Part shown: in pieces, positions 39,504 to 53,059 of the stretch | Position numbering within the stretch: position 1 is the stretch's first letter | Layout: every line of letters begins with the position of its first letter | Source: a virus | Reading direction: 5' to 3' (one strand) | DNA length: 64,000 nt | Virus record (IMG/VR): IMGVR_UViG_3300012662_000001 | Span: 1-64,000 of that record | Position numbers and translations under genes: made by a program | The notes under the pieces: generated by a model | Told to the model about the DNA's origin: nothing | Seen by the model: only the letters and a program-made list of their open reading frames with translations | The model's database searches: none

Positions 39504-39527
39504 AATGTATAGAAATTTGTTTACACG

Positions 39528-39535: not shown

Positions 39536-39591
39536 ATCACTACATAGTAAATTTCAAAATTAGAATTCGTACATTAAAATCTCCATCTTAA

Positions 39592-39634
39592 ATGTAATAC
39601 ACCTCGTTTCTGTATGTAATACACCTCGTTTCTG
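39592..39634. repeat. two direct 21-bp iterons (22-bp period), ATGTAATACACCTCGTTTCTG
   Basis: copies at 39592-39612 and 39614-39634, identical, separated by 1 nt; core TACACCTC is shared with the second iteron array. Confidence 0.9.
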
Positions 39635-39666
39635 AAGTAATTAAGATTTGTGAAATCCCGACTACA

Positions 39667-39693
39667 TCGGGAGGGGGTCGGGAAAATTCGGGA
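39667..39693. repeat. three helically phased TCGGGA repeats
   Basis: TCGGGA at 39667, 39678 and 39688 (11 and 10 nt apart). Confidence 0.7.
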
Positions 39694-39821
39694 CTTTCCA
39701 GGGTCTTAAATAGTAGGAAATAGTATAAGAAAAAGAGAAATAGGGCTCCTGTCGGAGCTTCTATCTTTTAGAGAATCTCATACGAAATTTATGAAATTTC
39801 ATAAAGAAATCCTATATCATA

Positions 39822-39854
39822 TCTTGGATATTCTAAGAAATCACCCCAACTTTG
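39822..39854 (+). promoter_or_regulatory. promoter/operator cassette P7
   Basis: TCTTGGATATTCTAAGAA, then CAACTTTG, then the TAATCATTAAACATCAC leader. Confidence 0.55.
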
Positions 39855-39882
39855 CAGGCGTAATCATTAAACATCACATATT

Positions 39883-40233
39883 ATGAAACAGATTGACACT
39901 ATGAACATCACGACCCCTAAATGGCACATAGAAGAGCTTACGGGCTATAAGCCTGAGACGACGTTCTGGCAGGATTTCTCCGTCGTTGAGAAGATGAACG
40001 GCCTTAATGGCGTTCAGGAGACGTTCAACAGAGCGTTCAAGGAGTGGTCAGACCACTATAGATACCTCACCGAGCTTGTTCTCGTGCTCAACTGGAAGTG
40101 CTGGGACTGGTATGATCAGGGTGATGAGGATATGTCTATGCTCTACCAGAACCTCTTCTATCAGGCAAGGGACTATGCTCTGGACAACCTCAAGGACGAA
40201 GAACTTTCCTATTTCGTGAAAACTACGGATTAG
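39883..40233 (+). CDS. hypothetical protein
   Basis: 116-codon ORF behind P7. Confidence 0.5.
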   Translation: MKQIDTMNITTPKWHIEELTGYKPETTFWQDFSVVEKMNGLNGVQETFNRAFKEWSDHYRYLTELVLVLNWKCWDWYDQGDEDMSMLYQNLFYQARDYALDNLKDEELSYFVKTTD

Positions 40234-40266
40234 TCCTTGGATATTCCAGAAATATGACTACCTTTG
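40234..40266 (+). promoter_or_regulatory. promoter/operator cassette P8 (closest to consensus)
   Basis: TCCTTGGATATTCCAGAA, 19-nt spacer, TACCTTTG, then the TAATCATTAAATCAC leader. Confidence 0.6.
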
Positions 40267-40295
40267 TGGCCGTTAATCATTAAATCACTTACGTT

Positions 40296-41786
40296 ATGGG
40301 ATTCACACCGAGCAAGTATCAGCAGCGCATCTATGATTTCATAGAGCAGGGCACAGGCAACGCAGTCATCAACGCAGTCGCAGGAAGCGGCAAGACAACA
40401 ACCCTAATCAGTCTCCTGGAACGTGTTTCGGCCACGAGCAGGGTTCTCTTTCTGGCCTTTAATAAGAGCATCGTGGAGGAACTGAAGATAAAGACCTCCC
40501 GATTCAGCAATGTGGACGTTAGAACACTGCACTCACTCGGATGCTCGGCTCTCCGTAAGCAGCTCTCCATAGGAGACATCAACAGCAGCAAGTATCGTCA
40601 ATACGTCACGGAGCAGCTGAAGTCAGGAGCATACGCCCCCACACGAGAGCTGTCTCTGAAGGAGAAGTCTGAGTATAAGAGCAACGTGCTGGATCTCATC
40701 GACCTCGCACGTGTCAATCTGTGTCAGTCCGCTCAGGAGGTTGCCGCTGTGGCCGAGAAGCACGGTCTGTTCCTGCACGACAACGAGATACAGCTCGCCC
40801 TGAATGCAATTGTCTGGGGTCGCAGCGAAAGCGGCCTTTCCACCATCGACTTCACGGATATGATATATCTTCCTTGCTACTTCAGCGAGGTGCGGTTCTT
40901 CAAGTATGACCTCGTCCTAATAGACGAGTGTCAGGACTTGAATGCGGCTCAGAGAACTTTATTCCTCAAGACCATTAAGCGCAACGGACGCTTCGTGGCC
41001 GTGGGGGATCCTCGTCAGGCGATATACGGCTTCGCTGGAGCGGACGTGGAGTCATTCAACCTCCTCAAGTCCCTCCCTAACACGGTGGAGCTTCCGCTGT
41101 CAGTGTGCTATCGCTGTGACAGGGAGATTATCAGGAAAGCCCAGACGGAGGTTCCACAGATAGAGTGGCGTGAGAACGCTCCTGACGGCACGGTGAACAG
41201 TGACGCCAAAATTGCCGACGTCAAGGACGGTGATATGGTGCTGTGTCGTCTGTCAGCACCGCTCGTGGCTCTCTGCATCAGGTGGATAGGTGATGGCGTC
41301 AAGGCCTACATCAAGGGTCGTGACATCGGCACCAACCTCGTCAATATGCTCCAGAAGACCAAGCGTGTCCGCATCAAGGACGCTCTCAATGTTCTCCGCA
41401 AGGAATTGGCTCGTGTTCAGGGGGAGATACAGAGGACGTGCGGTATGTCTCCTGAGGAGGCCGTCCAGCACACCGCCTATGTCCTCTATGAGGATAAGAT
41501 TAAGGCGATAGAGGTCATCGCCGAGGGACTGACCAAGGTTGAGGAGGTGTGTGATCGCATCAACGCAATCTTCAGTGACGAGAGCAAGCAGGGCATCTGT
41601 CTTTCGACCGTTCACAAGTCCAAGGGACTGGAGAGTGACAGAGTGTTCATCGTCTGTCCTGACAAGTTCCTACTGAAGCGGTCAATGCGAATTCCGTGGA
41701 TGGCGGAGCAGGAGCACAACCTCGTCTATGTGGCCTACACAAGAGCGAAGCACTATCTCGGCTTCGTGACGGACTTTAAGATATAA
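40296..41786 (+). CDS. UvrD/PcrA-like SF1 helicase (paralog 2)
   Basis: VAGSGKTTT, IDECQDLN, VGDPRQAIYGFAGA, TVHKSKGLESDRVF, VAYTRAKHYL. Confidence 0.85.
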   Translation: MGFTPSKYQQRIYDFIEQGTGNAVINAVAGSGKTTTLISLLERVSATSRVLFLAFNKSIVEELKIKTSRFSNVDVRTLHSLGCSALRKQLSIGDINSSKYRQYVTEQLKSGAYAPTRELSLKEKSEYKSNVLDLIDLARVNLCQSAQEVAAVAEKHGLFLHDNEIQLALNAIVWGRSESGLSTIDFTDMIYLPCYFSEVRFFKYDLVLIDECQDLNAAQRTLFLKTIKRNGRFVAVGDPRQAIYGFAGADVESFNLLKSLPNTVELPLSVCYRCDREIIRKAQTEVPQIEWRENAPDGTVNSDAKIADVKDGDMVLCRLSAPLVALCIRWIGDGVKAYIKGRDIGTNLVNMLQKTKRVRIKDALNVLRKELARVQGEIQRTCGMSPEEAVQHTAYVLYEDKIKAIEVIAEGLTKVEEVCDRINAIFSDESKQGICLSTVHKSKGLESDRVFIVCPDKFLLKRSMRIPWMAEQEHNLVYVAYTRAKHYLGFVTDFKI

Positions 41787-41797
41787 TTTCCTGGATT

Positions 41798-41832
41798 GCT
41801 CCTTGGATATCCAAGGAGCAGCCTTATATTTG
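41798..41832 (+). promoter_or_regulatory. promoter/operator cassette P9 with a 24-bp perfect palindrome
   Basis: TGCTCCTTGGAT|ATCCAAGGAGCA (41798-41821), then TATATTTG (41825-41832). Confidence 0.6.
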
Positions 41833-41856
41833 CACACAGATTAAAACACACACGAT

Positions 41857-42327
41857 ATGACAGAAGGACTAAAAATCACCCTTGACGGATGGACAGGGAA
41901 CTACAACGTGACCGAAATAACAGCCAGTGAGGACGGAACGGTGACGCTCCGATGCACACCTCGGGATGGGGGTGTGAAAGTCGCCCAGAGGGCGGAAAAC
42001 TCGGGAACCGTGGCACGACCACGAATTCGTTCCTATATGCACTGTTCAGGGCTTGTGCGTATGCTCGTGAACGGCAGAATGGTTACGGCAGCCGTCACGC
42101 ACTGCACTGACAGAGCGGTGCGAGTGCTGAATCTCGAACTTGGTGCGGCCTGGATCCCCAAGAACGTTCTCAGGTGGTCAGAAGTGGCCGGAATGCTCTG
42201 TGTCGTGGACGCTGACTACTGGCCGGACTTCACGACGGAGGTCAGCCCATCTATGATGGAATATCCTGTTCTGTTCAACGCAGAGGAGCTGTATGACAGA
42301 GAATTCACTCCAAACACCTATCTTTGA
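41857..42327 (+). CDS. hypothetical protein
   Basis: 156-codon ORF behind P9. Confidence 0.5.
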   Translation: MTEGLKITLDGWTGNYNVTEITASEDGTVTLRCTPRDGGVKVAQRAENSGTVARPRIRSYMHCSGLVRMLVNGRMVTAAVTHCTDRAVRVLNLELGAAWIPKNVLRWSEVAGMLCVVDADYWPDFTTEVSPSMMEYPVLFNAEELYDREFTPNTYL

Positions 42328-42350
42328 TTCCGTTTCAAAACCACATAGAG

Positions 42351-42512
42351 ATGAAAATGGAAGATATGATAAATAGAACTCTCCTATGGCTTGAGGGTCT
42401 AAATCTTGTTGACAGGATGATGGCCGTCACAGCAATAATGATTGGGGCTGCATTCACTGGAGCACTTATAGCTCTCACGTTAATGAGCCTTTTATGCCTG
42501 ATAGCCAATTAG
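42351..42512 (+). CDS. small single-TM protein, holin candidate
   Basis: 53 aa with hydrophobic MMAVTAIMIGAAFTGALIALTLMSLLCLI; immediately upstream of the endolysin. Confidence 0.35.
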   Translation: MKMEDMINRTLLWLEGLNLVDRMMAVTAIMIGAAFTGALIALTLMSLLCLIAN

Positions 42513-42534
42513 TTAAACAGTTATAAAAAGAGAA

Positions 42535-43047
42535 ATGATTATGAAGGAAAGAACATTATGGCCACTCGTGATGGGAGTGGTTGCATTTGTAGGCATTGTA
42601 TTCACTGTAACACGATGCACTCACAGAACTGACGAGGTGGTGGAGGAATGTGAAGAACACCACTTTGACGACACTGTGCAGAATGCAGAGATTATGGAAT
42701 CCGTCTATGATAGAATCTTCCAGCTCCGTCTGGATCACCCTGACATCGTGATGGCGCAGTGTATTCTGGAAAGCGGTGAGTTCACTTCCGACCTGTTCAA
42801 GGAGGGTAACAACTGTCTCGGTATGAAAGTTCCTGGACATCGTCCAACGTTTGCCGTGGGTGTATATAGAAATCACGCCAAGTTCAGGTCGTGGCACGAC
42901 TGCATCGCCGACTATGCTCTGTGGCAGAGCGCCTATGGGAGGGGTCTTTCGGATGACGCCTATCTGGCTCTGCTGGATAGAATATATGCCGAGGACGGCT
43001 CGTATGCAGGCAAGTTGAAATCAATCATTCGCAAATATAATCTATAG
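42535..43047 (+). CDS. endolysin, glucosaminidase/FlgJ-like muramidase domain with N-terminal signal-anchor
   Basis: AQCILESGEFTSDLFKEGNNCLGMK and YAEDGSYAGKLKSII match the glucosaminidase family pattern (ESGwG.S.la...NN.fGiK ... YAtdp.Y..kl); N-terminal TM segment LWPLVMGVVAFVGIVFTV. Confidence 0.75.
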   Translation: MIMKERTLWPLVMGVVAFVGIVFTVTRCTHRTDEVVEECEEHHFDDTVQNAEIMESVYDRIFQLRLDHPDIVMAQCILESGEFTSDLFKEGNNCLGMKVPGHRPTFAVGVYRNHAKFRSWHDCIADYALWQSAYGRGLSDDAYLALLDRIYAEDGSYAGKLKSIIRKYNL

Positions 43048-43050
43048 TCT

Positions 43051-43206
43051 ATGTGGAAAATAGTCAAGTCCCGTGTGGACAGAAACGCTGACTTCTTCAA
43101 GCAGATGGAGGATCAGGGGTGGGAACTGAAGTCAGCCCTCTACTCGTGTATGGATGGAATGTATCACTATATCTTTAGAAAGGAGAGTGACGATGCACAG
43201 CGGTAG
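43051..43206 (+). CDS. possible 51-aa protein, below the ORF-track cutoff
   Basis: MWKIVKSRVDRNADFFKQMEDQGWELKSALYSCMDGMYHYIFRKESDDAQR; starts 1 nt after the endolysin stop codon (43045-43047). Confidence 0.3.
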   Translation: MWKIVKSRVDRNADFFKQMEDQGWELKSALYSCMDGMYHYIFRKESDDAQR

Positions 43207-43579
43207 AGCGGAGCGATTCCATCCCCATTGTTGCATCGTTCCGGGCAATGTCACACTTCTGCTATACTACATCACACGTGTCATCGGGAAGCCCGTGTTC
43301 GCCAGAACACAGCTTTCCCTTTTCCGAACTCCAGTGTGGTGGCAATGGATTCAGGAGAACAATCTACCTCCTTCAATAGTCAATCTTATGGACGGCACAC
43401 TGGAGGAGAACTATGGTCTTAAGATAGAGGGCGGTGACGTGGAGACGACGAACATCAATCTCGCTGATGACAGCGCTCTAATCTGTGAGCGGTGGCTGGA
43501 AGGGTGGCGCAAGCAGTGCGCTCATCGCTCATACAGGCAGCACAACACCACGGAGTTCCGACCTCTGCTTGCGAATTAG
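43193..43579 (+). CDS. hypothetical protein
   Basis: internal ATG of ORF 43154..43579. Confidence 0.35.
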   Translation: MHSGRAERFHPHCCIVPGNVTLLLYYITRVIGKPVFARTQLSLFRTPVWWQWIQENNLPPSIVNLMDGTLEENYGLKIEGGDVETTNINLADDSALICERWLEGWRKQCAHRSYRQHNTTEFRPLLAN

Positions 43580-43643
43580 GTGGATGAATCCAGGGAATAT
43601 TCAATGGAATGCACGTTATGTCTTTTTAAATTTATAAAGAAGT

Positions 43644-43973
43644 ATGAGACAGTCAGAATTATGCAAGGAGATAGCCGCCAGAACGGCTGTCAGACCGTTA
43701 GGCGTCAGGGCGTGTCTTGAAGCGTTCACGGACATTCTCAGGGAGAAGACCCTTGGGGAGGGCGTGGAGATCATCACTCCGTTCGGCAAGTTTGGCCGCA
43801 AGACGTTTGCGGCCAGAAAGTGTCGAAACCCGAAGACAGGAAAGATCACCGTGACGCAGGAGACACGAGCACTGGCGTTCAGCACCAGAAAGAAGCTAAA
43901 GCTTCACCTGATGGAGGACGGCTCCTATAAAGCCATTCCACCACGCAAGCGCAAGTCAACAGTAAAGAAGTAG
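43644..43973 (+). CDS. hup: HU/IHF-family DNA-binding protein
   Basis: MRQSELCKEIAART...ACLEAFTDILRE...FGKFGRKTFAARKCRNPKTGKITVTQETRALAF, the typical HU arm pattern R.gRNP.TGe.i.i. Confidence 0.8.
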   Translation: MRQSELCKEIAARTAVRPLGVRACLEAFTDILREKTLGEGVEIITPFGKFGRKTFAARKCRNPKTGKITVTQETRALAFSTRKKLKLHLMEDGSYKAIPPRKRKSTVKK

Positions 43974-43977
43974 CGTT

Positions 43978-44469
43978 ATGGCAGCACCGAGAAAAAAATC
44001 AGCAGCGTCGGACGTAATCGTTCCGAAATGGAACGCTCGATTCGAGATTCAACCTGTGAAATTTGATCTTCACGACCACATCGACTTTCACAATAGATGG
44101 TGGCCAAAAGTCATCTGGATGGATGGGGTATGGCCAAAGCGTAACAGCAACATCATTGTGGACGTCACAGGTCAGACGTACACGTTCCGTCAGGTGTCAG
44201 TTCGCTCAACGAATATGGAGACACCCTTCCCGACTGAAGCCCTCTACCTGATAGAGACGCCAAGCACCGTCACCGTCTGCTCCAGCTCCTCCTTCTGGAG
44301 CTATGGCAAGAAAGTTCTCGCCGAGGGACGCAAGGGTGCTCGTATGTGGCCGTCCTACCTCAACTATCTTATGGAGTTTGCCCTTGTGACGTACAGCCGT
44401 GAGGACTGGGGCAGGCTTCAGGCCGAGGGACACATCACCATTGTCGAGAGTCAAATCAAACAGCAGTAA
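43978..44469 (+). CDS. hypothetical protein
   Basis: 163-codon ORF. Confidence 0.5.
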   Translation: MAAPRKKSAASDVIVPKWNARFEIQPVKFDLHDHIDFHNRWWPKVIWMDGVWPKRNSNIIVDVTGQTYTFRQVSVRSTNMETPFPTEALYLIETPSTVTVCSSSSFWSYGKKVLAEGRKGARMWPSYLNYLMEFALVTYSREDWGRLQAEGHITIVESQIKQQ

Positions 44470-44475
44470 CGCATT

Positions 44476-44898
44476 ATGAAAAAGTGGATTAAGAAGAAGT
44501 TCAAGGGGTTTTTCGAGTGGGCTTTCAGTGAAGAACTCGACAATATGAGAACCACCTGTGACAGACAGCAGCACACAACATCCCAGATGCAGAAGGAGAT
44601 AGAAGACTTGCGCATCCTTCAGAACCAACTCAACATCTATGAGAGAAAGTTGAAGGCACTTCTGGGCAGCATCTCTGTGTCGGCCAATCTCCCTAAAAAG
44701 GCGGAAAACTGGGCGGTGATATCCATTCAGGGTGAGCAGATAGACTATGTGAAGTTCATCGCTCTACCGAAGAACGATATGATCGCCATCAGTCAGTTCC
44801 TTGCACAGTTCCAGTCTCACGCACTGGAGACAAGTCCAGCGAACTATAATCTTGTGAACGGCAAGATAATCGAAATTAAGAACAACAAACAGCAGTAG
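44476..44898 (+). CDS. hypothetical coiled-coil protein
   Basis: 140-codon ORF. Confidence 0.5.
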   Translation: MKKWIKKKFKGFFEWAFSEELDNMRTTCDRQQHTTSQMQKEIEDLRILQNQLNIYERKLKALLGSISVSANLPKKAENWAVISIQGEQIDYVKFIALPKNDMIAISQFLAQFQSHALETSPANYNLVNGKIIEIKNNKQQ

Positions 44899-44900
44899 AA

Positions 44901-45677
44901 ATGAAACTTTCAGAAAAAAGAATCGTGTTCGTCGATATGGACGACACCCTAATTAAGACAGCGTCAGGCAAGACCTTTCCTCTGGGCGTGTACGATATGA
45001 CGCTTCGCCTGGACGTGTTTGCAAAGATAAAGATGATAGCCCCGAATGCGGTGTTCATCGTGTCCAATCAGGGTGGTCTGGAGACAGGTAACGTCAACCC
45101 AACGCTCTTTCAGCACAAGTTTATGTATGTGATAGCGGCTCTGCAGGAGTTTCTCGGACTGCACACATTCGTCGCAGGAAAGTTCTGCCCGACCCAGAAC
45201 CCAAAATTTGAGGGTCGCAAGCCGAACACAGCAATGCTCACTTCTATGCTGGACGAGTTTGAGCAGATAGTGAAGGACTACAAGTTTACCAAGGAGGAGT
45301 GTGTGTACATCGGTGACACGCTCATTGACACGGAATGGAAGACGGCTGAGAACTTCGGATGTGACTTCGTGCCTGTGGAGGACTTCCTCGGTATGCACGT
45401 TGATCCTCCCACCTATCGCATCGTGAACAAAAAGGACTGTTCCGACTATGACGGCAGGATTCTTACCAAGGCTGAGGCCGTGCAGATAGTGCGTGAACAC
45501 ACTAATGAGAACGGTGAAACGGAATGGGACATCGTTCCAAGCAAGTTCCTCCCTCCAAAGCCTGATGCAGCTCCGGAACCTGAGGACAAAAACAAGCCGA
45601 GATCAAAGAAGGAAGTCAAGGTCGTCGTTCCTCCGTTCGTGAAAAAGGCGGCTGAGAAAGGAAAACTGAAGAACTAA
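44901..45677 (+). CDS. HAD-IIIA phosphatase (polynucleotide 3'-phosphatase/GmhB-like) with Lys/Pro-rich tail
   Basis: VFVDMDDTLIKT (DxDxT), VSNQGG, GRKPNTAML, IGDT. Confidence 0.7.
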   Translation: MKLSEKRIVFVDMDDTLIKTASGKTFPLGVYDMTLRLDVFAKIKMIAPNAVFIVSNQGGLETGNVNPTLFQHKFMYVIAALQEFLGLHTFVAGKFCPTQNPKFEGRKPNTAMLTSMLDEFEQIVKDYKFTKEECVYIGDTLIDTEWKTAENFGCDFVPVEDFLGMHVDPPTYRIVNKKDCSDYDGRILTKAEAVQIVREHTNENGETEWDIVPSKFLPPKPDAAPEPEDKNKPRSKKEVKVVVPPFVKKAAEKGKLKN

Positions 45678-45681
45678 GATT

Positions 45682-45708
45682 TTCGGGGAGCAATCCCCGA
45701 ATTTCTTT
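45682..45708 (+). terminator. rho-independent terminator
   Basis: TTCGGGGA-gcaa-TCCCCGAA followed by TTTCTTT. Confidence 0.7.
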
Positions 45709-45748
45709 ATGACATCAGTTATATCTACAACAAATAAAATTACAGATT

Positions 45749-46432
45749 ATGAATTCAGAGAACTACTATTTCGTGTTTAAGGATATGAACAGTTCCTGTG
45801 GACGTGTCAAGGTTATGACATACCCCATTGAGAATCCAAGCAAGAACGCCCTTAAGAAAAAGGCCAAGAACATCATTGACAACGCTCAGAAAGCAGGAAT
45901 GCGGCTGGCTCTGCTGGAAGCCTATCCAGTAACTGAAAATGTATCTCAGAATCTACCGAAGCTGTCACGTCACACCAGAAATGAGCACCTTTACAAATAT
46001 GAAATTAATATGGGTGACATCCGTAGTGACAGAACCATTCGTGTTGACATCTATGAGTGCAGCACCGCTCCATATCTTCTCAATGAGAAACGTATCAAGG
46101 TTGTGTCTGAGGAATATGTGCAGAACGAGATTCGCAACGGCTATGAGATACTTGGAATCGCCTTTATGGGCGAAGAACAGTTTGTCACCGAGCCTATTAG
46201 TGACAGTGTGGTGGAAAACTCTCGCAAATCGTCTAAAAAGGACGAATATGTGTGGGTTAAGGTCAAGGACGGTGATGACGGTAACGGCATTAATTGGATT
46301 CCGGCTCGCAGAACCTCCAACGGTGAGATTGTGTCCTTCGTGGGTCTTATGTTCACGGACACTCCGAAGGAGGACACTCGCTCGTTCACGGACTGTCCAG
46401 TTCCTGGATACGTTATTACTACAACGATGTAA
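45749..46432 (+). CDS. hypothetical protein
   Basis: 227-codon ORF. Confidence 0.5.
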   Translation: MNSENYYFVFKDMNSSCGRVKVMTYPIENPSKNALKKKAKNIIDNAQKAGMRLALLEAYPVTENVSQNLPKLSRHTRNEHLYKYEINMGDIRSDRTIRVDIYECSTAPYLLNEKRIKVVSEEYVQNEIRNGYEILGIAFMGEEQFVTEPISDSVVENSRKSSKKDEYVWVKVKDGDDGNGINWIPARRTSNGEIVSFVGLMFTDTPKEDTRSFTDCPVPGYVITTTM

Positions 46433-46477
46433 TGAGCATCGCATATTGTTTGTAAATTCCATTTGAATAGGTTGTTG

Positions 46478-46509
46478 CCCGATCGCCTGTGACAGGTTAT
46501 CGGGTTTTT
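46478..46509 (+). terminator. rho-independent terminator
   Basis: CCCGAT..CCTGT-g-ACAGG..ATCGGG followed by TTTTTC. Confidence 0.7.
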
Positions 46510-46520
46510 CTTTATATTAA

Positions 46521-46554
46521 TCCTTGGATAATTCCAGACATTCCACTATATTTG
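46521..46554 (+). promoter_or_regulatory. promoter/operator cassette P10
   Basis: TCCTTGGATAATTCCAGA, then TATATTTG, then the TAATCATTAAATCAC leader. Confidence 0.6.
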
Positions 46555-46582
46555 CCGTATAATCATTAAATCACGTTACACT

Positions 46583-46861
46583 ATGAACAGCAGCATCACA
46601 TTAAAATCATTCAAATTTCAGAACAGCTCAGGATACATCAAGACGGACTATGTTCAGATATGGTTCAAGGACAGAGAAGTGGGGGTCATCGCTCCGGAGG
46701 GCATCTTTCTTCGTATGTATGATCCTCACTGCAAGGAGGGCATCCTGAGGCCAATTGAAGCACCCAAAACAAACGATGTTTCAGTGCTTACAAGGTTCTT
46801 CAGGGGTCACTTTGACGCCATCAATGACCGCTACACGACTGTGTTCAGAAATGAGCAGTAG
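46583..46861 (+). CDS. hypothetical protein
   Basis: 92-codon ORF behind P10. Confidence 0.5.
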   Translation: MNSSITLKSFKFQNSSGYIKTDYVQIWFKDREVGVIAPEGIFLRMYDPHCKEGILRPIEAPKTNDVSVLTRFFRGHFDAINDRYTTVFRNEQ

Positions 46862-47118: not shown

Positions 47119-47574
47119 CTACACAATCGTGAAGTCAAGATGGACGTCGTCCACATCAATGAAGCCCTGTTCCACAAGCAGAGTTGCTATTGTACAGCCG
47201 TCCGTGAACCGCACGTCAATGACTGGATACAAATTAGTGACAACGGTGAACGAGCCAACCTTTTCTCTGTGCAGATTGTCCCATACAGGCACGACAGGCG
47301 GCCTTCGCTCTCGTGTGCGCACGCCGAACGTGCCGCCATCCTTGAGAATCGTTCTTGGCTGAACCAGAACTGTCTCCAGAGACCTGATGTACTTGCGCTT
47401 CAGCAGACAGAATGCCGTTCTACAGACGTCTCTGTTCAGTGTGATGTAGTCAGCGGACACGTGAAACTCCTCACGCACTCTATTACGAAAGTAGTTCGTG
47501 TCCTCCTTCAGCATATCGTCAAAGTCCATACGAAGCAGGTTCAAAAGCCGCTCCTCTACTTTAGCATTACCCAC
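47119..47574 (-). CDS. hypothetical protein (last gene of the minus-strand island)
   Basis: 151-codon ORF overlapping the peptidase gene by 19 nt. Confidence 0.5.
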   Translation of the reverse strand: MGNAKVEERLLNLLRMDFDDMLKEDTNYFRNRVREEFHVSADYITLNRDVCRTAFCLLKRKYIRSLETVLVQPRTILKDGGTFGVRTRERRPPVVPVWDNLHREKVGSFTVVTNLYPVIDVRFTDGCTIATLLVEQGFIDVDDVHLDFTIV

Positions 47575-48152
47575 GATTCAATGATTTTATCAAAGTCACT
47601 TATAGGAAGACAGCCGTATCCATACGACCCCCAATCCAGACCCCACGTGTTCTTAAAGGTAAGTTCATCCTCACTGAACGCAGTCACCGTGACAGCGTGA
47701 TAACCCACAGGGCGACCCTCTCCAAGCCAGAACTGATTCGTTGCATTGTAGACAGGCAGAGCGATGAGAATCGGACCGCACGACACAAGAGCCGACTTCA
47801 TAGCCATAACGGACGGAATTCGAGCGTATAGAGAGACAATGCCGTTCTTCCGAAGTATTTCCATACCCTCCCGAGGTGTCATTCCCTCAACGGCCTTATT
47901 CTGTCTTCTGTCGTACACCCATCGTCTGTCTATGGGACACGTGTCACGGCTCCACTTCTCTCTGTCATACCTGACCATCTCATATAGGCACTGAGACACG
48001 CAGCTTCCATCAGCACCCTGATTGATGACGTCATTCCTAACATCAGCTCCAAAGAGTTTTGGAGTGGCTGTTGACAGAATCTGAACATATTCCACGTCCT
48101 TTGAACTTGCTCCTGACGGCTCGCAGCCGCATCTAATGTTCTTCAGTATCAT
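47556..48152 (-). CDS. papain-like cysteine peptidase (C1 family)
   Basis: VINQGADGSCVSQC (Gln oxyanion plus catalytic Cys), GYHAVTVTAF (His), KNTWGLDWGSYGYG (Asn-x-Trp-Gly). Confidence 0.7.
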   Translation of the reverse strand: MILKNIRCGCEPSGASSKDVEYVQILSTATPKLFGADVRNDVINQGADGSCVSQCLYEMVRYDREKWSRDTCPIDRRWVYDRRQNKAVEGMTPREGMEILRKNGIVSLYARIPSVMAMKSALVSCGPILIALPVYNATNQFWLGEGRPVGYHAVTVTAFSEDELTFKNTWGLDWGSYGYGCLPISDFDKIIESWVMLK

Positions 48153-48468
48153 AGTAGATTGAAATTATCAGCCATATCAGTGAATCCGTGCAGACGCAGA
48201 ACGTGCTGAAGCTCGTGCACAAACTCGACTTTTATGTTTCCAGACCAAAAACAATTCTTGTTTGAATCATAGTCCAGAATGAAGTCTGGATCCTCTTTAT
48301 CACCCATAGAATAGGCCGCCCATCCTTGCTTCCAGCCGTCTCGCAGAAGCCGACTTCAATCTCTTCGTGTCAATCTTCAAAAGTTTCATCACAAAACGAC
48401 ATTCTTCTTGGTTTATTGCTAAAGATAACCTCCTCTCTGTGCTTCCAGTTTACCGCTACCCACGCCAT
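48149..48468 (-). pseudogene. disrupted HExxH metallopeptidase-like gene, or alternatively two short genes of 32 and 52 aa
   Basis: The 3' part (48149-48307) encodes MGDKEDPDFILDYDSNKNCFWSGNIKVEFVHELQHVLRLHGFTDMADNFNLL and ends in an ATGA overlap with the peptidase start. The 5' part (48370-48468) ends at an in-frame TGA and is in a different frame. Confidence 0.35.
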
Positions 48469-48469
48469 A

Positions 48470-48769
48470 CTACTTCCTTCTAAATCTAACGATTGATTTT
48501 TCATTCATTAGTTCCAAAACAGAAATGGTGTATGTTTTACGTCTAAATCTTACTTCATTGTTCACCATTGTCATAGTTGTGGAATCACTTGCTGTGAGCA
48601 CGGCTCTATCCGTCCACATATCATAGGGAAGCAGAATGAAACCGTTGGACGTTGTTAGACTGTCAATTGTCCTCTGTGGGGTGTAGGTGCGTACCTCCAG
48701 ATACTGAACTCCGGAGCCACAGCCTACAAGCAACATTGCAGTCATAGTAATTATCATTAATCGTTTCAT
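48470..48769 (-). CDS. lipoprotein
   Basis: MKRLMIITMTAMLLVGCGSG, a signal peptide plus lipobox Cys. Confidence 0.6.
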   Translation of the reverse strand: MKRLMIITMTAMLLVGCGSGVQYLEVRTYTPQRTIDSLTTSNGFILLPYDMWTDRAVLTASDSTTMTMVNNEVRFRRKTYTISVLELMNEKSIVRFRRK

Positions 48770-49281
48770 AAGTCGTATTCCTTTGCTATTTTAACGGATT
48801 CCTCCTTGGTCATCGGGCGAACGTGATCCCAGCCCAAGTCATCAAGCAAACCCTGTGTTATGGGATAGTTCACGTGAACGTTGCCGTCCAAAGTGCAGTA
48901 GCATCTATGCTCATCATCACGGAACAGCACCACGTCCGGATAATTCTGTCTCCAGAATATAGGGTCGGAGAACGCCACCATAACGTCACTCCACTCCGTT
49001 TCCAGACCGTGCGGCCTGTCAACATTAGGTTGAACGGACATTATTGACCGAAATTCACTCTCTGTGAGACGTCTTGCAGGTGCTTGCAGTGAACTGGACT
49101 GTTGCTGTTCCAGAAGTCGCTGTAACTCGGTGTTCTTGATCGTAAGCTCCTCAATCAGAGCGTTGGCGTTGTCAAGCTCCTTCTGTAGATCCTTGACCTC
49201 ACGTTCCTTGAAATACATCTTTCTTTCAAGGCGGTCTATCTCCGCCTTGAAAGTTTGCATATTTTGTTCTATCACTGACAT
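48766..49281 (-). CDS. hypothetical coiled-coil protein
   Basis: 171-codon ORF; N-terminal heptad-rich region. Confidence 0.55.
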   Translation of the reverse strand: MSVIEQNMQTFKAEIDRLERKMYFKEREVKDLQKELDNANALIEELTIKNTELQRLLEQQQSSSLQAPARRLTESEFRSIMSVQPNVDRPHGLETEWSDVMVAFSDPIFWRQNYPDVVLFRDDEHRCYCTLDGNVHVNYPITQGLLDDLGWDHVRPMTKEESVKIAKEYDL

Positions 49282-49283
49282 TG

Positions 49284-49856
49284 TTAGTCCTTTAATGCAG
49301 TGTCCTGATTTATCTCCCCGATACCGAACTCCTTATAGTCTCGACCAATGAAGACGATGTAGATTCTTGAAGCATAAGGCTTGTCCCAGAACTGATAATT
49401 GTATCTAAATGTATGCTGATGTTCTGTAAGATACATAATCTCTTCTCGAGGATTGCCATCACTATGATAGTTATAGACTTCACATTCCTTTTCCAGTATC
49501 TTACAGTATTCCTCTATTGCCTGTTGTCTGTTGGAACTTACACCGTCTTCCTTGAATAAAGGGAGTGTCTTTATCATTCGAGTGTCACTCCAGATAATAT
49601 TCTTGCTGTTGGCCGCAAGCATAACTTCCCCAATGGATCTCAATCCAGCATCACTGCATCTACCAAAGTTGATATAGACCTGATTATAGCCGACTACTTC
49701 ATAGGAAACATTTCCCTTGCGAAGCTCTGAAAGCAGAACTGTGAGATTACCACCGACGTGCATTTCCTCGATGGAGAAGAAATCAGCGGCATAGACTGAA
49801 ATCGAAAGACAAAATGCTGCAATGACAGCAGCGATAATTGTAATAAATCTTTTCAT
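49284..49856 (-). CDS. secreted hypothetical protein
   Basis: MKRFITIIAAVIAAFCLSISVYA signal peptide. Confidence 0.55.
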   Translation of the reverse strand: MKRFITIIAAVIAAFCLSISVYAADFFSIEEMHVGGNLTVLLSELRKGNVSYEVVGYNQVYINFGRCSDAGLRSIGEVMLAANSKNIIWSDTRMIKTLPLFKEDGVSSNRQQAIEEYCKILEKECEVYNYHSDGNPREEIMYLTEHQHTFRYNYQFWDKPYASRIYIVFIGRDYKEFGIGEINQDTALKD

Positions 49857-49869
49857 AATACGAAATTGT

Positions 49870-50823
49870 CTATAGTTGTGAAAATATGTGTTTCAGTAGA
49901 ATGCCAACGAAGTTCACGTCCCAGCCGTTGCCAGCTCTGTTCCAGAGTTGATTGGGTGTCAGTCCGGCATAGTCAAGTTCACCGTCTCTAAACCCCATAA
50001 ATCTGAATCGTTCATCAGCGGACATACGTCTGACAATTTCTCTTCCGTCACGTGGCGGCTCAACCACATAGAAAACGTTGTGTTCCTCCAGTATGGTTCC
50101 AGAGAGACCGTCCGTGCGAACCTTGCGATTGTAGAGGTCGAGATTGGCGGCTTCAGTGACCTGAAGCTGATTGCCGAGCCTGTACTTCTCTTTGATGTAC
50201 TGTATACGCTTATCACTAAGATACAGTGATGGGTCTGGGTGCTCGTCAAGAAGATCCTTGAAGCGCAGACTAGAAGGACACTTCGATGGAACAATACTGA
50301 ACCCCTCCGGAAGACCTCCAAGCCGTGCGAATATCCAGACACGTTCCCTGTTCTGCGGTATGCCGTAGTCCTTGCTGTTCATAAGGCCGTAGGCGATATC
50401 ACCATAGCCAAGCTCCTTGAATGCGTCTTTGATAAGGTTAAATGTCTCTTCAAACTTCCTGGATAGGAAGCCCTTGACATTCTCCAGAAGAACATACTTC
50501 GGCTTCTTAACGGAGCACACATAGATGATGTCAGCGAAAAGTGTGCCACGACCATAGCGGTCTCTTTCTCCTTCCTGATCACCTATGAGGCTGAACGGCT
50601 GACACGGAAAGCCGCCTGTGAACAGGTCAAAGTCAGGCAGCTCCTCTGGATTCAACTTGGTGATGTCACCGTAGTTCCTGATGTCAGGGAAGTTAGCGGC
50701 CAAAAGTTTGTTGGCATCCTTGTTGATGTCGGACTGACCCACTACCTTAAACGGTATTCCGGAGCGTCTTAGACCGAATGACGCTCCACCGTATCCTGCG
50801 AATGTTTCAAATACTCGTAGCAT
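49870..50823 (-). CDS. dcm: DNA (cytosine-5)-methyltransferase (second copy, different family member)
   Basis: FETFAGYGGASFG (I), GGFPCQPFS (IV), ENVKG (VI), QNRERVW (VIII), GNGWDV (X). Confidence 0.9.
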   Translation of the reverse strand: MLRVFETFAGYGGASFGLRRSGIPFKVVGQSDINKDANKLLAANFPDIRNYGDITKLNPEELPDFDLFTGGFPCQPFSLIGDQEGERDRYGRGTLFADIIYVCSVKKPKYVLLENVKGFLSRKFEETFNLIKDAFKELGYGDIAYGLMNSKDYGIPQNRERVWIFARLGGLPEGFSIVPSKCPSSLRFKDLLDEHPDPSLYLSDKRIQYIKEKYRLGNQLQVTEAANLDLYNRKVRTDGLSGTILEEHNVFYVVEPPRDGREIVRRMSADERFRFMGFRDGELDYAGLTPNQLWNRAGNGWDVNFVGILLKHIFSQL

Positions 50824-50825
50824 AA

Positions 50826-51098
50826 TTATCTGTAGTTTTGGATTTTCTCGAAAAAGACATTAATGGCTTCCAGAATGGCCTGAAGATCCAGACCGCTGAA
50901 CTCTGACGGCTCATATTCATTACCCCAGATGTCGGCCACGTTGATCCAACCGTTCCCCTTGCGAATCACTGACTTAATCTGTGCGAAGTCACCGTTAACA
51001 GTTGCACAGTCAAGTGGGTGTGAAAAGAAAAGTTCCGTGTTAAGAGGAAGAGTGGACTTGATGAATGACTTAAAGTCAGAAACTGAAAAACGTGCCAT
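50826..51098 (-). CDS. hypothetical protein
   Basis: ATG at 51098 is the first start downstream of the minus-strand promoter cassette. Confidence 0.4.
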   Translation of the reverse strand: MARFSVSDFKSFIKSTLPLNTELFFSHPLDCATVNGDFAQIKSVIRKGNGWINVADIWGNEYEPSEFSGLDLQAILEAINVFFEKIQNYR

Positions 51099-51153
51099 AA
51101 TGCAAAGCAAAATAAAAACCAACAAACAAAGGCAACCAACCTGATTGCAAGTG

Positions 51154-51186
51154 CAAAGGTAGTCATCTTTCTTGGAAATCCAAGGA
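51154..51186 (-). promoter_or_regulatory. promoter/operator cassette P13 on the minus strand
   Basis: minus strand reads TCCTTGGATTTCCAAGAAA, 19 nt, then TACCTTTG. Confidence 0.55.
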
Positions 51187-51211
51187 TTTTATCAAGAATT
51201 TTCTAAAAAAT

Positions 51212-52003
51212 CTATTCGTCCAAAGATGGGTTTTTATTACTCATACAGCCGTTATCTGTAACCTTAAATCTTATGCCAATAACACGAGCCCTTTTCTTGG
51301 CAATCACCTTTTTAAGAATATATTCATACTCGAATGTAAGCCTACATCCTCTATCATCAATCTCCTTTTTACATTCCTTAATATAGTCCGTAACAAAGCG
51401 ATTAGTGTCTATCTGTTCTGGACAGTCCAGCCGCTTGCGAAGTTCCTGCAAGTCCGCATCCCAAACTCCAGCACCATATTTAGGATGCTTGCGGTTAAGG
51501 TTTTCTGACAAATAAAGGTACAAATTCATAGATGTAGGCCGTTGAAGAGCCATAAAAGATTGAACACAAAAAGAAGCATAACCTGTTTTCTTGGAAAAGT
51601 CCAACAACCATCTAAGAGAACGTGGTGGAATTCCCACCCAATATCTTCCATCCTTATTTAGAAGAGTGTAGAATAGAGGAAATGTAGCCTTTCTACCTTG
51701 TTCATCCACTTCATCTATGACGTTAATCTGCGTCATCTTTTCAAGTAGAGATCTTACACTGCCATTATGAGACATTACATATTTAGGTTCGATCTCTACT
51801 TCAAATTCAGAAAGGCTGTTTAGTGGAAAAATTTGTTTTAACCTTTCTGTGTCAAGAGTTTTCCAGTCCACTTCTTCATTTCCTGGAATAAATTCCTGCA
51901 AGGCTTCCACTACAACAGCCCAACAGCGTTTCTGTCGAGCAGAACTGTATTTTGTCACATCTCTTGTTGCACGTTTCGTTGTGCGTAAAATTCTTTTGCT
52001 CAT
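51212..52003 (-). CDS. putative replication initiator (Rep), paralog 2
   Basis: Paralog of 38634..39503 along its whole length; iteron array directly upstream. ATG at 52003 is downstream of the -7 box. Confidence 0.5.
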   Translation of the reverse strand: MSKRILRTTKRATRDVTKYSSARQKRCWAVVVEALQEFIPGNEEVDWKTLDTERLKQIFPLNSLSEFEVEIEPKYVMSHNGSVRSLLEKMTQINVIDEVDEQGRKATFPLFYTLLNKDGRYWVGIPPRSLRWLLDFSKKTGYASFCVQSFMALQRPTSMNLYLYLSENLNRKHPKYGAGVWDADLQELRKRLDCPEQIDTNRFVTDYIKECKKEIDDRGCRLTFEYEYILKKVIAKKRARVIGIRFKVTDNGCMSNKNPSLDE

Positions 52004-52023
52004 TTCGTTTGTAATTTGATGCA

Positions 52024-52031
52024 CAAATATA
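52024..52031 (-). promoter_or_regulatory. -7 box TATATTTG for rep paralog 2
   Basis: TAnnTTTG on the minus strand, 20 nt upstream of ATG 52003. Confidence 0.45.
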
Positions 52032-52067
52032 CAAATTATTTTCATAAACTATAATCCGTTCGTCTGT

Positions 52068-52146
52068 GGGGGGTTTTACACCTCTATTTGGGGGGTTTTA
52101 CACCTCTATTTGGGGGGTTTTACACCTCTATTTGGGGGGTTTTACA
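52068..52146. repeat. 3.6 tandem 22-bp iterons, GGGGGGTTTTACACCTCTATTT
   Basis: perfect copies at 52068-52089, 52090-52111 and 52112-52133; partial fourth copy at 52134-52146. Confidence 0.95.
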
Positions 52147-52943
52147 TTTCTGTAAAATTCTGTAAATGAAATAGTTATCGGGAAAAGAGGCCTCCTGTAA
52201 TAGTAGGGGTAATAGATATTGGGTAATAGTATGATTGTTTATTGATAGTATTACTCCTAAAGTCGTAATACATATCACAATCATACTATTACCTGAAATA
52301 GAAGGGAAATTAAGAAAAGGGAACCGAAACGTCACATCTGAAAATGGAGGGGCTTCGAAAGGGGACTCCTCCCTTACGGTCGGAGGTCTTGTCTTCCCCT
52401 TTCTACGCCCAGGAGAGGGTCGACAGAGCGACCCTGTTTCCTTATAGGAGAATCCTGTATGAAATGCCGTTATACAAACAGTCGTGTCAAGGCCGCAAAG
52501 AATTCAACATTCTTCCCTTCACACGCTTGAGAACGGATAGCATAGATGGGCAGTGCAGTTCCCTATGAAAGTCGTTTATGGAGCAGACATAAAAAGACAC
52601 ATAGCGAAAAGACGGTTGGTTCGATTCCACCTCCGTGGCCTAATTATTTCGGCCTTGTGCTGTAACGTGTTTTGTATTTGATTTGTGATTAGGTGAATTT
52701 GTCAGTTTTTAGACGATTTAGGCGATGTTTGATGTTGGTTCAGTGTAGTTGTCAGGTTTGTGATTAGTTTGTTCCTATATTGCGTAGAATTTTAGTTTGG
52801 ATATCATATTTACGAAAAATTGAGTTTTATCAGTAGTTTTAGAGTTTACAGAATTTTTCTTTTTCGTGTCATTATGCAGGTCGTCCACCGTCTGGGAAGT
52901 AAGGTTCTCCACGGTGGGCATTTTTATGAAAAATCGTGAAAAG

Positions 52944-52977
52944 TTCATTGGAAATTTCAGAAAGGCCACTATATTTG
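52944..52977 (+). promoter_or_regulatory. promoter/operator cassette P11 (a second TATATTTG lies at 53025-53032)
   Basis: TTCATTGGAAATTTCAGAAA, 19 nt, then TATATTTG. Confidence 0.5.
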
Positions 52978-53059
52978 TAGTGTGATAAGACAGAGTGATA
53001 GTTCTTTTAATAGGCTTGTTCTGCCTATATTTGTATCACGAAATTTTAATTCTTTAGAT

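Follow-up and report, generated by a model that had tools for sequence, protein, structure and literature searches.

The rep2-ori2 module

The rep2 gene lies at positions 51212-52003 (minus strand) of the window, i.e., the whole 64-kb stretch of phage DNA analyzed, and codes for a 263-aa protein with the N-terminus MSKRIL which, judged by its predicted fold, is a RepE-like initiator of the Rep_3 superfamily. A longer 277-aa open reading frame from an ATG at 52045 also exists, but it would cross the -7 box, and the homologue alignments begin at 52003. Rep2 scored 24.1 bits against Pfam Rep3_C (PF21205), above the cut-off of 21.1, and 16.2 bits against Rep3_N (PF01051), under the cut-off of 22.4, and it was matched by phrog_4402 (replication initiation protein, 2.4e-11). 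A profile built from the Rep family reached proteins strongly passing both Rep3_N and Rep3_C. A profile search of PDB sequences was without a match, as were megablast and tblastn searches of 50,697 phage records and 72,556 plasmids, and 185,579 species genomes, MAGs included, yielded no relative of the Reps. The captured plasmid or satellite origin offered as one explanation in an earlier note on this DNA is thus not supported. As these sequence searches gave no match, the placement of Rep2 needed a fold search. Its AlphaFold model (pLDDT 80.9, pTM 0.81) contained two tandem winged-helix domains (WH1 and WH2), and the best 43 Foldseek matches in the PDB were all RepE or Rep-iteron complexes (43/43, probability 1.00, E-values down to 5.8e-8, TM 0.41-0.58), ranking before domains 2-3 of RctB and including initiators bound to iteron DNA and to the single-stranded DNA of an unwound DUE. 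Apart from the Rep-like proteins, no initiator candidate was seen across the 64-kb window, nor was a DnaB-type helicase, a loader, or a primase identified there.

Upstream of rep2, a scan with TANNTTTG identified the Bacteroidota-type -7 promoter box TATATTTG at 52024-52031 (minus strand), 20 nt 5' of the ATG, the last iteron lying ~36 nt upstream of the box. The ori2 iteron array consists of the 22-bp unit GGGGGGTTTTACACCTCTATTT in 3.6 copies at 52067-52146 (Tandem Repeats Finder, 100% matches, score 160) and lies between genes, at 64-143 bp 5' of the rep2 ATG. The -7 box and the 3.6 perfect repeats had both been recognized in the earlier note, with the array starting one position later (52068). 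The iterons of the window were identical to those of the related contig L001 despite a dS of ~0.6 in the neighboring rep2, and their copy number varied from 2.6 to about 5.6 across near-identical genomes. The gap that follows the array includes a short A+T-rich direct repeat, TTCTGTAAAA in 1.9 copies (52148-52166; Tandem Repeats Finder), also present in L128, and is closed by the motif TCGGGAAAA (52178-52186, plus strand). This motif has two exact copies in the 64 kb, the other being that of ori1 at 39678-39686, and a CGGGA(A/T)TT-like motif occupies the equivalent position in the origins of the relatives. The earlier note was right about its presence and misplaced it at 52188.

Phased TAATAG/ATAGTA repeats together with an inverted repeat form a candidate unwinding element at 52197-52293 with 70-83% A+T, a range that was also obtained for 52214-52300. 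The motif GTAATAGTA starts at 52197 and 52223, GGGTAATAG at 52207 and 52221, and ATAGTA at 52245, while the perfect 17-bp inverted repeat (52222-52238 and 52277-52293) contains an inverted motif copy at 52284-52292. Repeats of this kind with one inverted copy had been proposed for 52196-52260; they are present there, except that the inverted copy lies slightly beyond. Five of the 10 copies of AATAGTA in the window fall within the two origin regions, and CTATT/ATAGTA repeats with a period of ~11 bp were found in every origin of the family. The same stretch (52197-52293) is a candidate for the right-hand recombination junction of the rep2 cassette, and homology with relatives of a different Rep type restarts at 52206.

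DnaA boxes are common, if not universal, in iteron plasmid origins; the box TTATCCACA was absent at up to one mismatch from 52004-52980 and from 39504-39882. Nor did the rep2 promoter show an inverted half-iteron operator. An inverted degenerate iteron at 52296-52309 was discarded as a Rep2-specific element because it is located in backbone shared with genomes of other Rep types. GC skew was likewise set aside as an origin marker, since it tracks gene orientation and transcription and is uninformative on replication.

A second module with different iterons

Module 1 is a discrete 1,256-bp rep1-ori1 cassette at 38533-39788, delimited by a clean indel that leaves it missing in three close relatives (L050, L052, and L053) and present in L051/L002; on this genome comparison it is an accessory module. 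The rep1 gene (38634-39503, minus strand) encodes a 289-aa paralogue of Rep2 with 46% identity across 257 aa (E = 1e-83), and the exact Rep1 protein is present on 10 contigs. By itself Rep1 passes no Pfam cut-off (17.9 bits against Rep3_C, under the cut-off). Its upstream region holds the 22-bp iteron ATGTAATACACCTCGTTTCTGT in 2.3 copies at 39592-39641 (Tandem Repeats Finder), the TCGGGAAAA copy given above, AATAGTAGG at 39709, and two AATAGTA at 39709-39726. Only two full iterons were present in each of the eight contigs examined, fewer than in all other modules (3.4-5.6), so ori1 may be weak or purely regulatory.

Pairwise alignment and the location of both modules in the sequence thus bore out the earlier note's description of a second Rep paralogue with a repeated layout, of two initiator/iteron pairs with differing iterons in one phage genome, and of a conserved order of elements in modules 12.5 kb apart (the arrays are separated by 12,475 bp, and the layout is family-wide). 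The shared core that it had noticed, TACACCTC, occurs seven times in the window against 1.9 expected by chance, and five of the seven lie inside the arrays. The sequence GAGGTGTA is central to both iteron types and the WH2-side half differs between them. The description of module 2 as a diverged duplicate was not supported, as Rep2 is 91-97% identical to proteins of L014/L001 and 63-72% identical to P0006/P0004, and Rep1 is 83-86% identical to proteins of L002/L020. Each is therefore far closer to proteins of other phages than to the other; they are two alleles of the family pool joined by recombination and not a duplication within the genome. The substitution rates indicate strong purifying selection on both genes (dN/dS 0.02-0.11), with 0.02 for rep2 against its L001 orthologue (dS 0.61) and 0.10-0.11 for rep1.

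Co-variation of Rep proteins and iterons

All 13 Rep-homologue loci (13/13) carried their own upstream array of 21-22-bp repeats in 2.3-4.3 copies, followed by the CGGGA and ATAGTA/CTATT layout. In the Rep2 variant of L014/L128 (91% identical), 10 of the 24 substitutions fall within residues 72-88 (p = 3e-5), and the change in the corresponding iteron is confined to its central 7-8 bp (ACACCTCT in the window vs. ATGCCCCG in L128). Identity in WH2 correlated with that in the second iteron half (Mantel r = 0.54, p = 0.001), co-variation statistics of this kind being confounded by phylogeny. Domain mosaics were also observed, such as P0006 and P0013, which are 92% identical in WH1 and 37% in WH2. 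Iterons hence co-vary with the predicted Rep recognition helices, from which cognate specificity is inferred. The loci constitute a natural series of at least 10 Rep/iteron specificity types, accompanied by a predicted assignment of helices to iteron halves.

Probable cassette turnover at a conserved candidate origin locus

The site of module 2 (position B) is the divergent junction between the leftward early operon and the rightward structural operon, and it was the origin locus in all relatives readable there (L001, L003, L006, L042, L043, L044, and L128), which comprise every close relative examined and several distant ones. Its contents differ: Rep2 types occupy it in the window, L001, and L128, a very diverged third Rep type in L043 and L044 (hhalign probability 94.9), and still other Rep types in L042 and L003. 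The flanks are conserved despite these exchanges. On the left, 51120-51205 is kept in L043, L044, and L128 with their other rep types and includes the -7 box of the leftward operon downstream of rep2 (51154-51161, minus strand; -7 scan), while on the right a non-coding backbone by the structural operon (52206-53059, plus strand) retains 83-84% identity in L043 and L044 irrespective of their rep type. This backbone contains a structured region (fold z-score -2.7) and a tRNA-like element at 52533-52636 matched by tRNA models; Rfam at gathering thresholds and ARAGORN returned nothing for the window. The tRNA-like element was rejected as an att site because its 3' part matches no Bacteroidota genome.

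Iteron-like sequences of other specificity types were found downstream of both rep genes. A fossil iteron of the L043 type at 51215-51238 spans the rep2 stop, encodes the last eight residues, and differs from the functional L043 iteron by one mismatch in 20 nt; two tandem copies occupy this site in L001, L014, and L128. Three further heterologous fossils lie 3' of rep1, of the L002/L020 type at 38537-38560 (one mismatch in 20 nt), the L010 type at ~38585-38604 (three mismatches in 20 nt), and the L014/L128 type at 38610-38633 (one mismatch in 20 nt). The fossils are layered in L128, in the order two of the L044 type, two of the L043 type, and rep. Across the family, an iteron copy was present in 7 of 15 rep 3' flanks compared with 2 of 300 background windows, and six of the seven are heterologous, the copy in L042 being of its locus's own type. 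From these sequence comparisons, rep and its iterons behave as an exchangeable cassette on a conserved origin backbone across the family, and the fossil iterons appear to record the order of cassette replacements. Among the explanations put forward in the earlier note, incompatibility escape fits best with this same-site turnover of specificity that leaves fossil iterons behind.

Interpretation and alternative explanations

With moderate confidence, module 2 is interpreted as an iteron-type origin with its cognate RepE-like initiator, the specificity of which turns over by cassette replacement. The interpretation is based on the observed fold, repeats, conservation, co-variation, purifying selection, presence/absence patterns, and fossil iterons, and the best reading of the two sites is as theta-type iteron-controlled origins that would fire in the phage. 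In the mechanism proposed on this basis, which extends to DNA binding, melting, helicase loading, autoregulation, and origin activity, the 22-bp iterons would be bound by Rep2 monomers that, given a spacing of two helical turns, would line up on one face of the DNA. According to the predicted model, the central 8 bp of the iteron would be read by the WH1 recognition helix (~residues 83-90) and the G-rich half by WH2 (helix ~200-217). The Rep2-loaded array would then open the adjoining A+T-rich stretch of phased TAATAG/ATAGTA repeats, where the helicase would be loaded, and autoregulation of rep2 is probable since the array lies directly upstream of its promoter. Module 1 would be a further module of this kind with a different specificity type, and the pair may provide two independently controlled origins that double as incompatibility determinants. 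New cassettes would enter beside the backbone, old rep genes would be lost, and old iterons would stay as fossils, such that a two-module genome may be a step in, or a result of, this turnover.

It is less probable that a single origin works, most likely module 2, and that the other module is a regulator or an incompatibility/exclusion device, for instance one by which module 1 titrates or handcuffs a co-infecting relative's Rep or origin, or shields against such interference. The constantly short ori1 array is consistent with this, as are the evident ability of three close relatives to replicate without module 1 and the central GAGGTGTA of both iteron types, which makes cross-binding by WH1 conceivable; this reading is nevertheless considered unlikely given the purifying selection on Rep1, the complete layout of module 1 down to TCGGGAAAA and the AATAGTA repeats, and the Rep1-like protein that is apparently the sole Rep within 10 kb in L010 and L040. 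A division of labor by lifestyle, in which one origin maintains a low-copy plasmid-like episome in a carrier or pseudolysogenic state and the other serves lytic amplification, as do oriR/RepA and oriL/RepL in phage P1, would suit the classic role of iteron replicons as copy-number-controlled plasmid replicons, the recovery of ~106-kb contigs from many whole-community metagenomes, and the absence of an obvious integrase from those regions of this phage group that were seen. Such a division is improbable in view of the lack of ParA/ParB, toxin-antitoxin, repressor, and integrase genes among the window proteins scanned and in the precomputed annotations, the missing Rep relatives in the species genomes and plasmid collection, the same type of both modules, unlike in P1, and the sufficiency of one module in close relatives.

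Alternatively, the Rep-like proteins might be mere winged-helix transcription factors and the repeats operators of divergent promoters, with replication starting elsewhere. RepE-type proteins do autorepress, the iterons adjoin promoters at a divergent junction, and both regions lack a DnaA box; against this, tandem arrays of direct 22-bp repeats, and not inverted operators, beside A+T-rich phased repeats are an origin signature, the window offers no other initiator candidate, and the structural matches are initiators with iteron DNA and unwound DUE single-stranded DNA, which together render the alternative very improbable. A chimeric assembly of two one-module strains is a hardly credible source of the arrangement: one-module relatives of both kinds do exist, with position B only in IMG/VR contigs 160295, 144418, and 135457, but the exact Rep1 and exact Rep2 occur together on the independent assemblies ERZ808263 NODE_7 (106,510 bp) and ERZ26858473 NODE_218, so the chimera was rejected, and contig 142699 likewise has modules at positions A and B. 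Several contigs end inside the arrays (L001, L007, L008, L014, and L034-L037); these ends were discarded as genome termini and read as tandem-repeat assembly breaks because other assemblies span the same arrays.

Besides the preferred reading of origins with exchangeable cassettes, the heterologous 3' iterons and the second replicon might serve as weapons or shields in replication competition between phages, an idea regarded as quite unlikely. Carrying rivals' iterons in single copy could allow a genome to titrate or handcuff the initiator of a co-infecting relative, and a second origin of another specificity could keep its carrier replicating if the first were targeted. If true, this competition would drive rapid helix-specific diversification of the Rep/iteron pairs at the locus and amount to an arms race between lytic gut phages fought by plasmid-style incompatibility, and functional fossil iterons would be a new form of inter-phage competition. 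On the preferred reading, the logic of plasmid incompatibility groups, with specificity turnover and multi-replicon states, would also operate in a phage lineage. Replication origins have hardly been charted in uncultured gut Bacteroidota phages, and two delimited candidate origins with their putative initiators are provided here; the Rep/iteron modules could also be of use in Bacteroides genetics, as orthogonal replicon parts.

Comparison with known systems

The source phage is of a gut Bacteroidota type with a genome of ~106 kb. The "Flandersviridae" and "Gratiaviridae" (PMC8008677) were considered as candidate families and the phage was assigned to neither, as the described PolA, DnaB, and DnaG content and the 85-kb "Flandersviridae" genome do not fit.

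The module most resembles mini-F RepE/ori2, together with pPS10 RepA and R6K pi (PF01051/PF21205), in its two-winged-helix initiator with RepE as best structural match, direct repeats of 22-bp period by rep, an A+T-rich neighbor, and an array upstream of the rep promoter. It departs from these plasmids in its marginal sequence similarity, with one Pfam cut-off passed (Rep3_C, by Rep2 only), in the lack of DnaA boxes and of an inverted-repeat operator among the elements found, in its replicon, a ~106-kb phage, and in the phased TAATAG/CTATT repeats that replace the plasmid 13-mers. Two pairs of different specificity joined by recombination are also a feature of multi-replicon plasmids such as IncF (FIA/FIB/FII) and two-Rep_3 plasmids of Acinetobacter, multi-replicon Rep_3 plasmids being a subject of, for example, PMC7315799 and PMC9927589. 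In contrast to these, the present pairs reside in a phage, with a minimal 1.26-kb cassette and not a cointegrate product as the second module, and fossil iterons record what appears to be serial replacement at a fixed site.

Among phages, P1 has two replication modules (oriR/RepA with the incC and incA iterons, and lytic oriL/RepL) and iterons on both sides of rep, as in L042, where the downstream copy is of its own type. However, the P1 replicons are unrelated in type whereas both modules here are Rep_3-like, and the downstream incA of P1 binds the same RepA whereas most downstream copies here are of another specificity. Unlike P1- and N15-like phage-plasmids, no partition, toxin-antitoxin, or integrase genes were found by PHROG/Pfam and annotations in the window of the ~106-kb genome. 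The lambdoid O/ori-lambda system offers a parallel in that the DNA-binding specificity of the initiator and the iteron sequence co-vary between related phages, the replication modules of which are exchanged as mosaics. The lambda iterons lie within the O gene and O does not have the Rep_3 fold, whereas the iterons here are intergenic and upstream of rep, and lambdoid phages carry one module each compared with the two of the present genome.

Candidate Origin Layout and Co-occurrence of the Two Modules

The rep2 gene was assigned to 51212-52003 on the minus strand (263 aa, beginning MSKRIL); a 277-aa start at 52045 was rejected, as it would cross the promoter box and every homologue aligned from 52003. 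From rep2 toward higher coordinates, module 2 displayed a Bacteroidota-type -7 box (TATATTTG, 52024-52031), the ori2 iteron array (52067-52146; TRF period 22, 3.6 copies, 100% matches, score 160), the short repeat TTCTGTAAAA (1.9 copies), TCGGGAAAA at 52178-52186, and TAATAG/ATAGTA motifs (52197-52250), one further copy of which is inverted (52284-52292) and lies within a perfect 17-bp inverted repeat. The Rep gene, -7 box, and 3.6 perfect 22-bp iterons that the earlier note had described at 51212-52260 were all present in the sequence, as was TCGGGAAAA, which lay ten positions away from the 52188 given for it. Module 1 had the same element order, as had been claimed for iterons, motif, and repeats, with rep1 at 38634-39503 (minus strand), a -7 box at 39528-39535, the ori1 array at 39592-39641 (2.3 copies, with no more than two complete units in 8/8 contigs), TCGGGAAAA at 39678, and two AATAGTA copies at 39709-39726. 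The motifs shared by the modules far exceeded chance: the only two exact TCGGGAAAA copies in 64 kb lay one in each module, half of the ten AATAGTA copies in the window fell in the two origin regions, and the common core proposed for the two iteron families was recovered as TACACCTC, with five of its seven window copies within the two arrays (expectation 1.9).

Exact Rep1 and exact Rep2 occurred together on ERZ808263 NODE_7 (106,510 bp) and, from an independent sample, on ERZ26858473 NODE_218 (40,012 bp), a co-occurrence on independent contigs that ruled out an assembly artefact. Many contigs from several assemblers ended within iteron arrays; since other contigs ran through the same arrays, such ends result from assembly breaking at tandem repeats. 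In origins otherwise identical base for base (the window, L004, and L030-L033), the ori2 array had 2.6, 3.6, 4.6, or about 5.6 units, and iteron copy numbers from short reads should not be trusted.

Rep Family, Predicted Fold, and Proposed Origin Type

Pairwise alignment supported the description of Rep1 and Rep2 as paralogues (46% identity, E = 1e-83). Sequence evidence alone for Rep identity was thin. Rep2 passed Pfam Rep3_C (24.1 bits, cut-off 21.1), fell under the Rep3_N cut-off, and matched phrog_4402 "replication initiation protein"; Rep1 was under the cut-off for both domains, and a profile search of PDB sequences returned no match. At the level of fold, the predicted structure settles the RepE-like identity of Rep2: with a model built from a 16-sequence alignment (pLDDT 80.9, pTM 0.81), all 43 of the top 43 structure matches (probability 1.0, E down to 5.8e-8) were RepE of mini-F, in both monomer-iteron and dimer-operator complexes, or a Rep-iteron-DUE complex, with RctB next. 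Searching 1.84 billion representative proteins with a family profile gave a small family of 25 clusters at E < 1e-10 (lengths about 250-275 aa), known so far only from this phage group and unannotated metagenome proteins. Beyond these clusters the profile ran on into 340-430-aa proteins strongly passing Rep3_N and Rep3_C, so that Rep1 and Rep2 appear to be divergent members of the Rep_3 superfamily, a membership indicated by predicted fold and partial by sequence thresholds.

The best-supported reading of module 2 is a predicted RepE-like, iteron-controlled origin. Rep monomers would bind the 22-bp units and melt the stretch of phased repeats, which is rich in A+T (70-83%), and the promoter-adjacent array would autoregulate rep. 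No DnaA boxes were identified in either origin region, an inverted operator was looked for and not found, and GC skew was uninformative on the origin.

Every Rep homologue locus examined had its own 21-22-bp tandem array upstream (2.3-4.3 copies), followed by a CGGGA(A/T)TT-like motif, CTATT/ATAGTA repeats (period ~11 bp), and a hairpin. Between the window and relative L001, rep2 had dS = 0.61 and dN/dS = 0.02 with identical iterons, and dN/dS of rep1 was 0.10-0.11; the low ratios in both genes and the unchanged ori2 iterons at this divergence show that selection maintains rep1, rep2, and the ori2 repeats.

Co-variation of Rep Domains and Iterons

The iterons were compared in a common register of an A-rich start, an 8-bp central half, and a 10-bp second half. 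Iterons of Rep2 and of the homologue P0006 had the second half AAAACCCCCC in common and differed in their central halves, with second winged-helix domains (WH2) 75% identical and first winged-helix domains (WH1) 57% identical. Homologues P0006, P0008, P0011, and P0013 shared a central CACGCT together with the WH1 segment KYVVSKGRS-KPTLLKM, and the 92% identity of P0006 and P0013 in WH1 against only 37% in WH2 shows domain-level recombination among the Reps. WH2 correlated with the second half (Mantel r = 0.54, p = 0.001) and WH1 with the central half (r = 0.40, p = 0.017), both values being confounded by phylogeny. The clearest case of co-variation was the Rep2 variant of L014 and L128 (91% identical), where 10 of 24 differences fell within residues 72-88 (p = 3e-5), a segment including helix 83-90 ahead of the WH1 beta-hairpin in the Rep2 model, and where the differences between its iteron (GGGGGGTTTTATGCCCCGATTT, 3.4 copies) and that of the window (GGGGGGTTTTACACCTCTATTT) were confined to the central 7-8 bp. 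Since the two iteron types of the window have a central GAGGTGT in common and differ in the WH2-side half, with WH2 domains of Rep1 and Rep2 39% identical, the modules would be expected to have distinct specificity with some possible cross-talk.

Probable Cassette Exchange and Fossil Iterons

Position B, the module 2 site beside the structural operon, was never empty: all lineages in which the site could be read had a Rep gene and iterons there. The window, L001, and L128 shared the Rep2 type. L043 and L044 instead had a third Rep_3-like type, very diverged (21.3 bits on Rep3_N, 18.9 bits on Rep3_C; matched to the family by hhalign at probability 94.9), and the iterons of these two loci were private to each. 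A relative of this third type occupied the site in contig 135457, and other types did so in L042 and L003. Cassette borders were sharp, with the left flank 51120-51205, which holds the -7 box of the next operon, and everything rightward from 52206 conserved across Rep types. Directly downstream of the rep2 cassette, a C5 cytosine methyltransferase gene (49870-50823, minus strand) and a 90-aa ORF formed an insertion (49868-51120) compared to L043 and L044.

Module 1 was a clean 1,256-bp indel (38533-39788), missing from contigs 135457, 144418, and 160295, the first two of which displayed at its site a terminator hairpin and then TATGAAATTTCA within about 20 bp. Contig 142699 carries module 1 and thus also has two modules, and a coincidence in contig size (54,329 bp) suggests a third two-module lineage. 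With the neighbouring helicase as anchor, only 1 of 78 viral loci had a Rep within 5 kb, and in L009, L010, L016, L038, and L040 the Rep lay at a further position, again as a solitary opposite-strand gene. Beyond their own clades, Rep1 and Rep2 both had their nearest relatives in this last group; rep1 and rep2 are therefore alleles from a family pool, not the in-genome duplication implied by the earlier note's "diverged duplicate".

Iteron copies were also identified 3' of rep genes. In a scan of 200 nt around the stop codons of 15 rep genes with 14 iteron types (≤3 mismatches/20 nt), matches occurred in 7 of 15 rep flanks compared to 2 of 300 random windows. An L043-type iteron (51215-51238) supplies the last eight codons and stop of rep2, and two such copies were found at the rep2 end in L001 (heterologous iterons at 900-950), L014, and L128. 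The 100 bp 3' of rep1 (38537-38633) held L002/L020-type, L010-type, and L014-type copies, and further copies flanked rep in L043 (4090-4140, two of L044 type), L044 (3300-3345, one of window type plus L014-type copies), and L042 (one of its own type). The order in L128 (8075-8185), of conserved flank, two L044-type copies, two L043-type copies, and rep, is exactly as would be expected had a Rep2-type cassette inserted next to the origin backbone of an L043-like arrangement, on the backbone side of the older iterons, and had the older rep gene then been lost. The acidic C-terminal tail of Rep2's relatives was absent from Rep2, which would fit a junction inside the gene. The 3' copies are best read as mainly footprints of serial cassette replacement via two-module intermediates, with a possible role as decoy or handcuffing sites.

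Conserved Non-coding Backbone

The ~850 bp of non-coding sequence from ori2 to the structural operon (52206-53059) was 83-84% conserved in relatives of differing Rep type; possible roles are as a non-coding RNA, as a packaging site, or as an origin component. Positions 52335-52665 folded better than shuffled sequence (z = -2.7), and G+C-rich hairpins within 52343-52445 were conserved. The backbone also contains a tRNA-like element (52533-52636, plus strand; L043, 5484-5584; L128, about 9480-9590) whose anticodon loop is interrupted by 36-42 nt of inserted sequence. On the Rfam tRNA model it scored 19.6 bits in the window, under threshold, and 36.7 bits in L043, above the gathering score of 29, and its acceptor and T stems had compensatory changes among the window, L043, L044, and L128. 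ARAGORN made no call on the element, and its 3' 19-mer had no match in Bacteroidota genomes.

Genomic Context

Genes ran rightward until 38176, rep1 was a solitary leftward gene, and rightward genes resumed at 39883-46861, followed by a leftward block (47119-52003) ending in rep2 and, after a 1-kb non-coding stretch, the structural operon from 53060. The window encodes a DnaE-like polymerase, SbcCD-like proteins, RecA, NAD-dependent ligase, RNase H, three SF1/SF2 helicases, GroEL, ferritin, a sigma-70 factor, HU, two C5 methyltransferases (the second at 28509-29684), an endolysin-like glucosaminidase, a portal protein, and BACON-domain proteins. It also encodes a 178-aa protein with a DnaA C-terminal domain (32706-33242, plus strand; Bac_DnaA_C helix-turn-helix, 39.5 bits), although DnaA boxes were absent from both origin regions. 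The window proteins covered by scans or annotation included no integrase or partition gene, and no gene for DnaB, a primase, or a loader was identified within the 64 kb. The polymerase was split in two ORFs, matching phrog_405 profile positions 47-440 and 717-1064, with a 284-aa ORF without Pfam match between them (ORFs at 460-2118, 2155-3009, and 3138-6065). This arrangement may stem from insertion of a mobile element or from a polymerase that is split by nature. The UvrD-like helicase gene of relatives had Hint/homing-endonuclease (intein-like) domains or a GIY-YIG/NUMOD3 endonuclease neighbour (homing elements in L010 20576-20888 and L040 20794-20972), indicating that selfish elements are active in the phage group. 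Related contigs were 98-107 kb. Protein P0250 of contig 142699 carries the NCBI TPA label "MAG TPA: hypothetical protein [Herelleviridae sp.]", an affiliation that appears doubtful for this group given the DnaE-like polymerase, GroEL, ferritin, and Bacteroidota promoters (TAnnTTTG type) in its gene content.

Comparison with Known Systems

By predicted fold, the Reps belong to the same superfamily as those of the mini-F, pPS10, and R6K replicons, and the module would work alike. Plasmids that combine two replicons in a single molecule are well known, and phage P1 also carries two, but of unrelated types, whereas both are Rep_3-type here. Initiator-iteron co-variation as in this family is known from lambdoid phages. 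New here are the presence of two modules of Rep_3 type in a large phage of Bacteroidota type, an origin backbone that stays fixed while specificity cassettes are exchanged on it, a mobile rep-ori cassette of minimal size (1.26 kb), and a layered record of fossil iterons.
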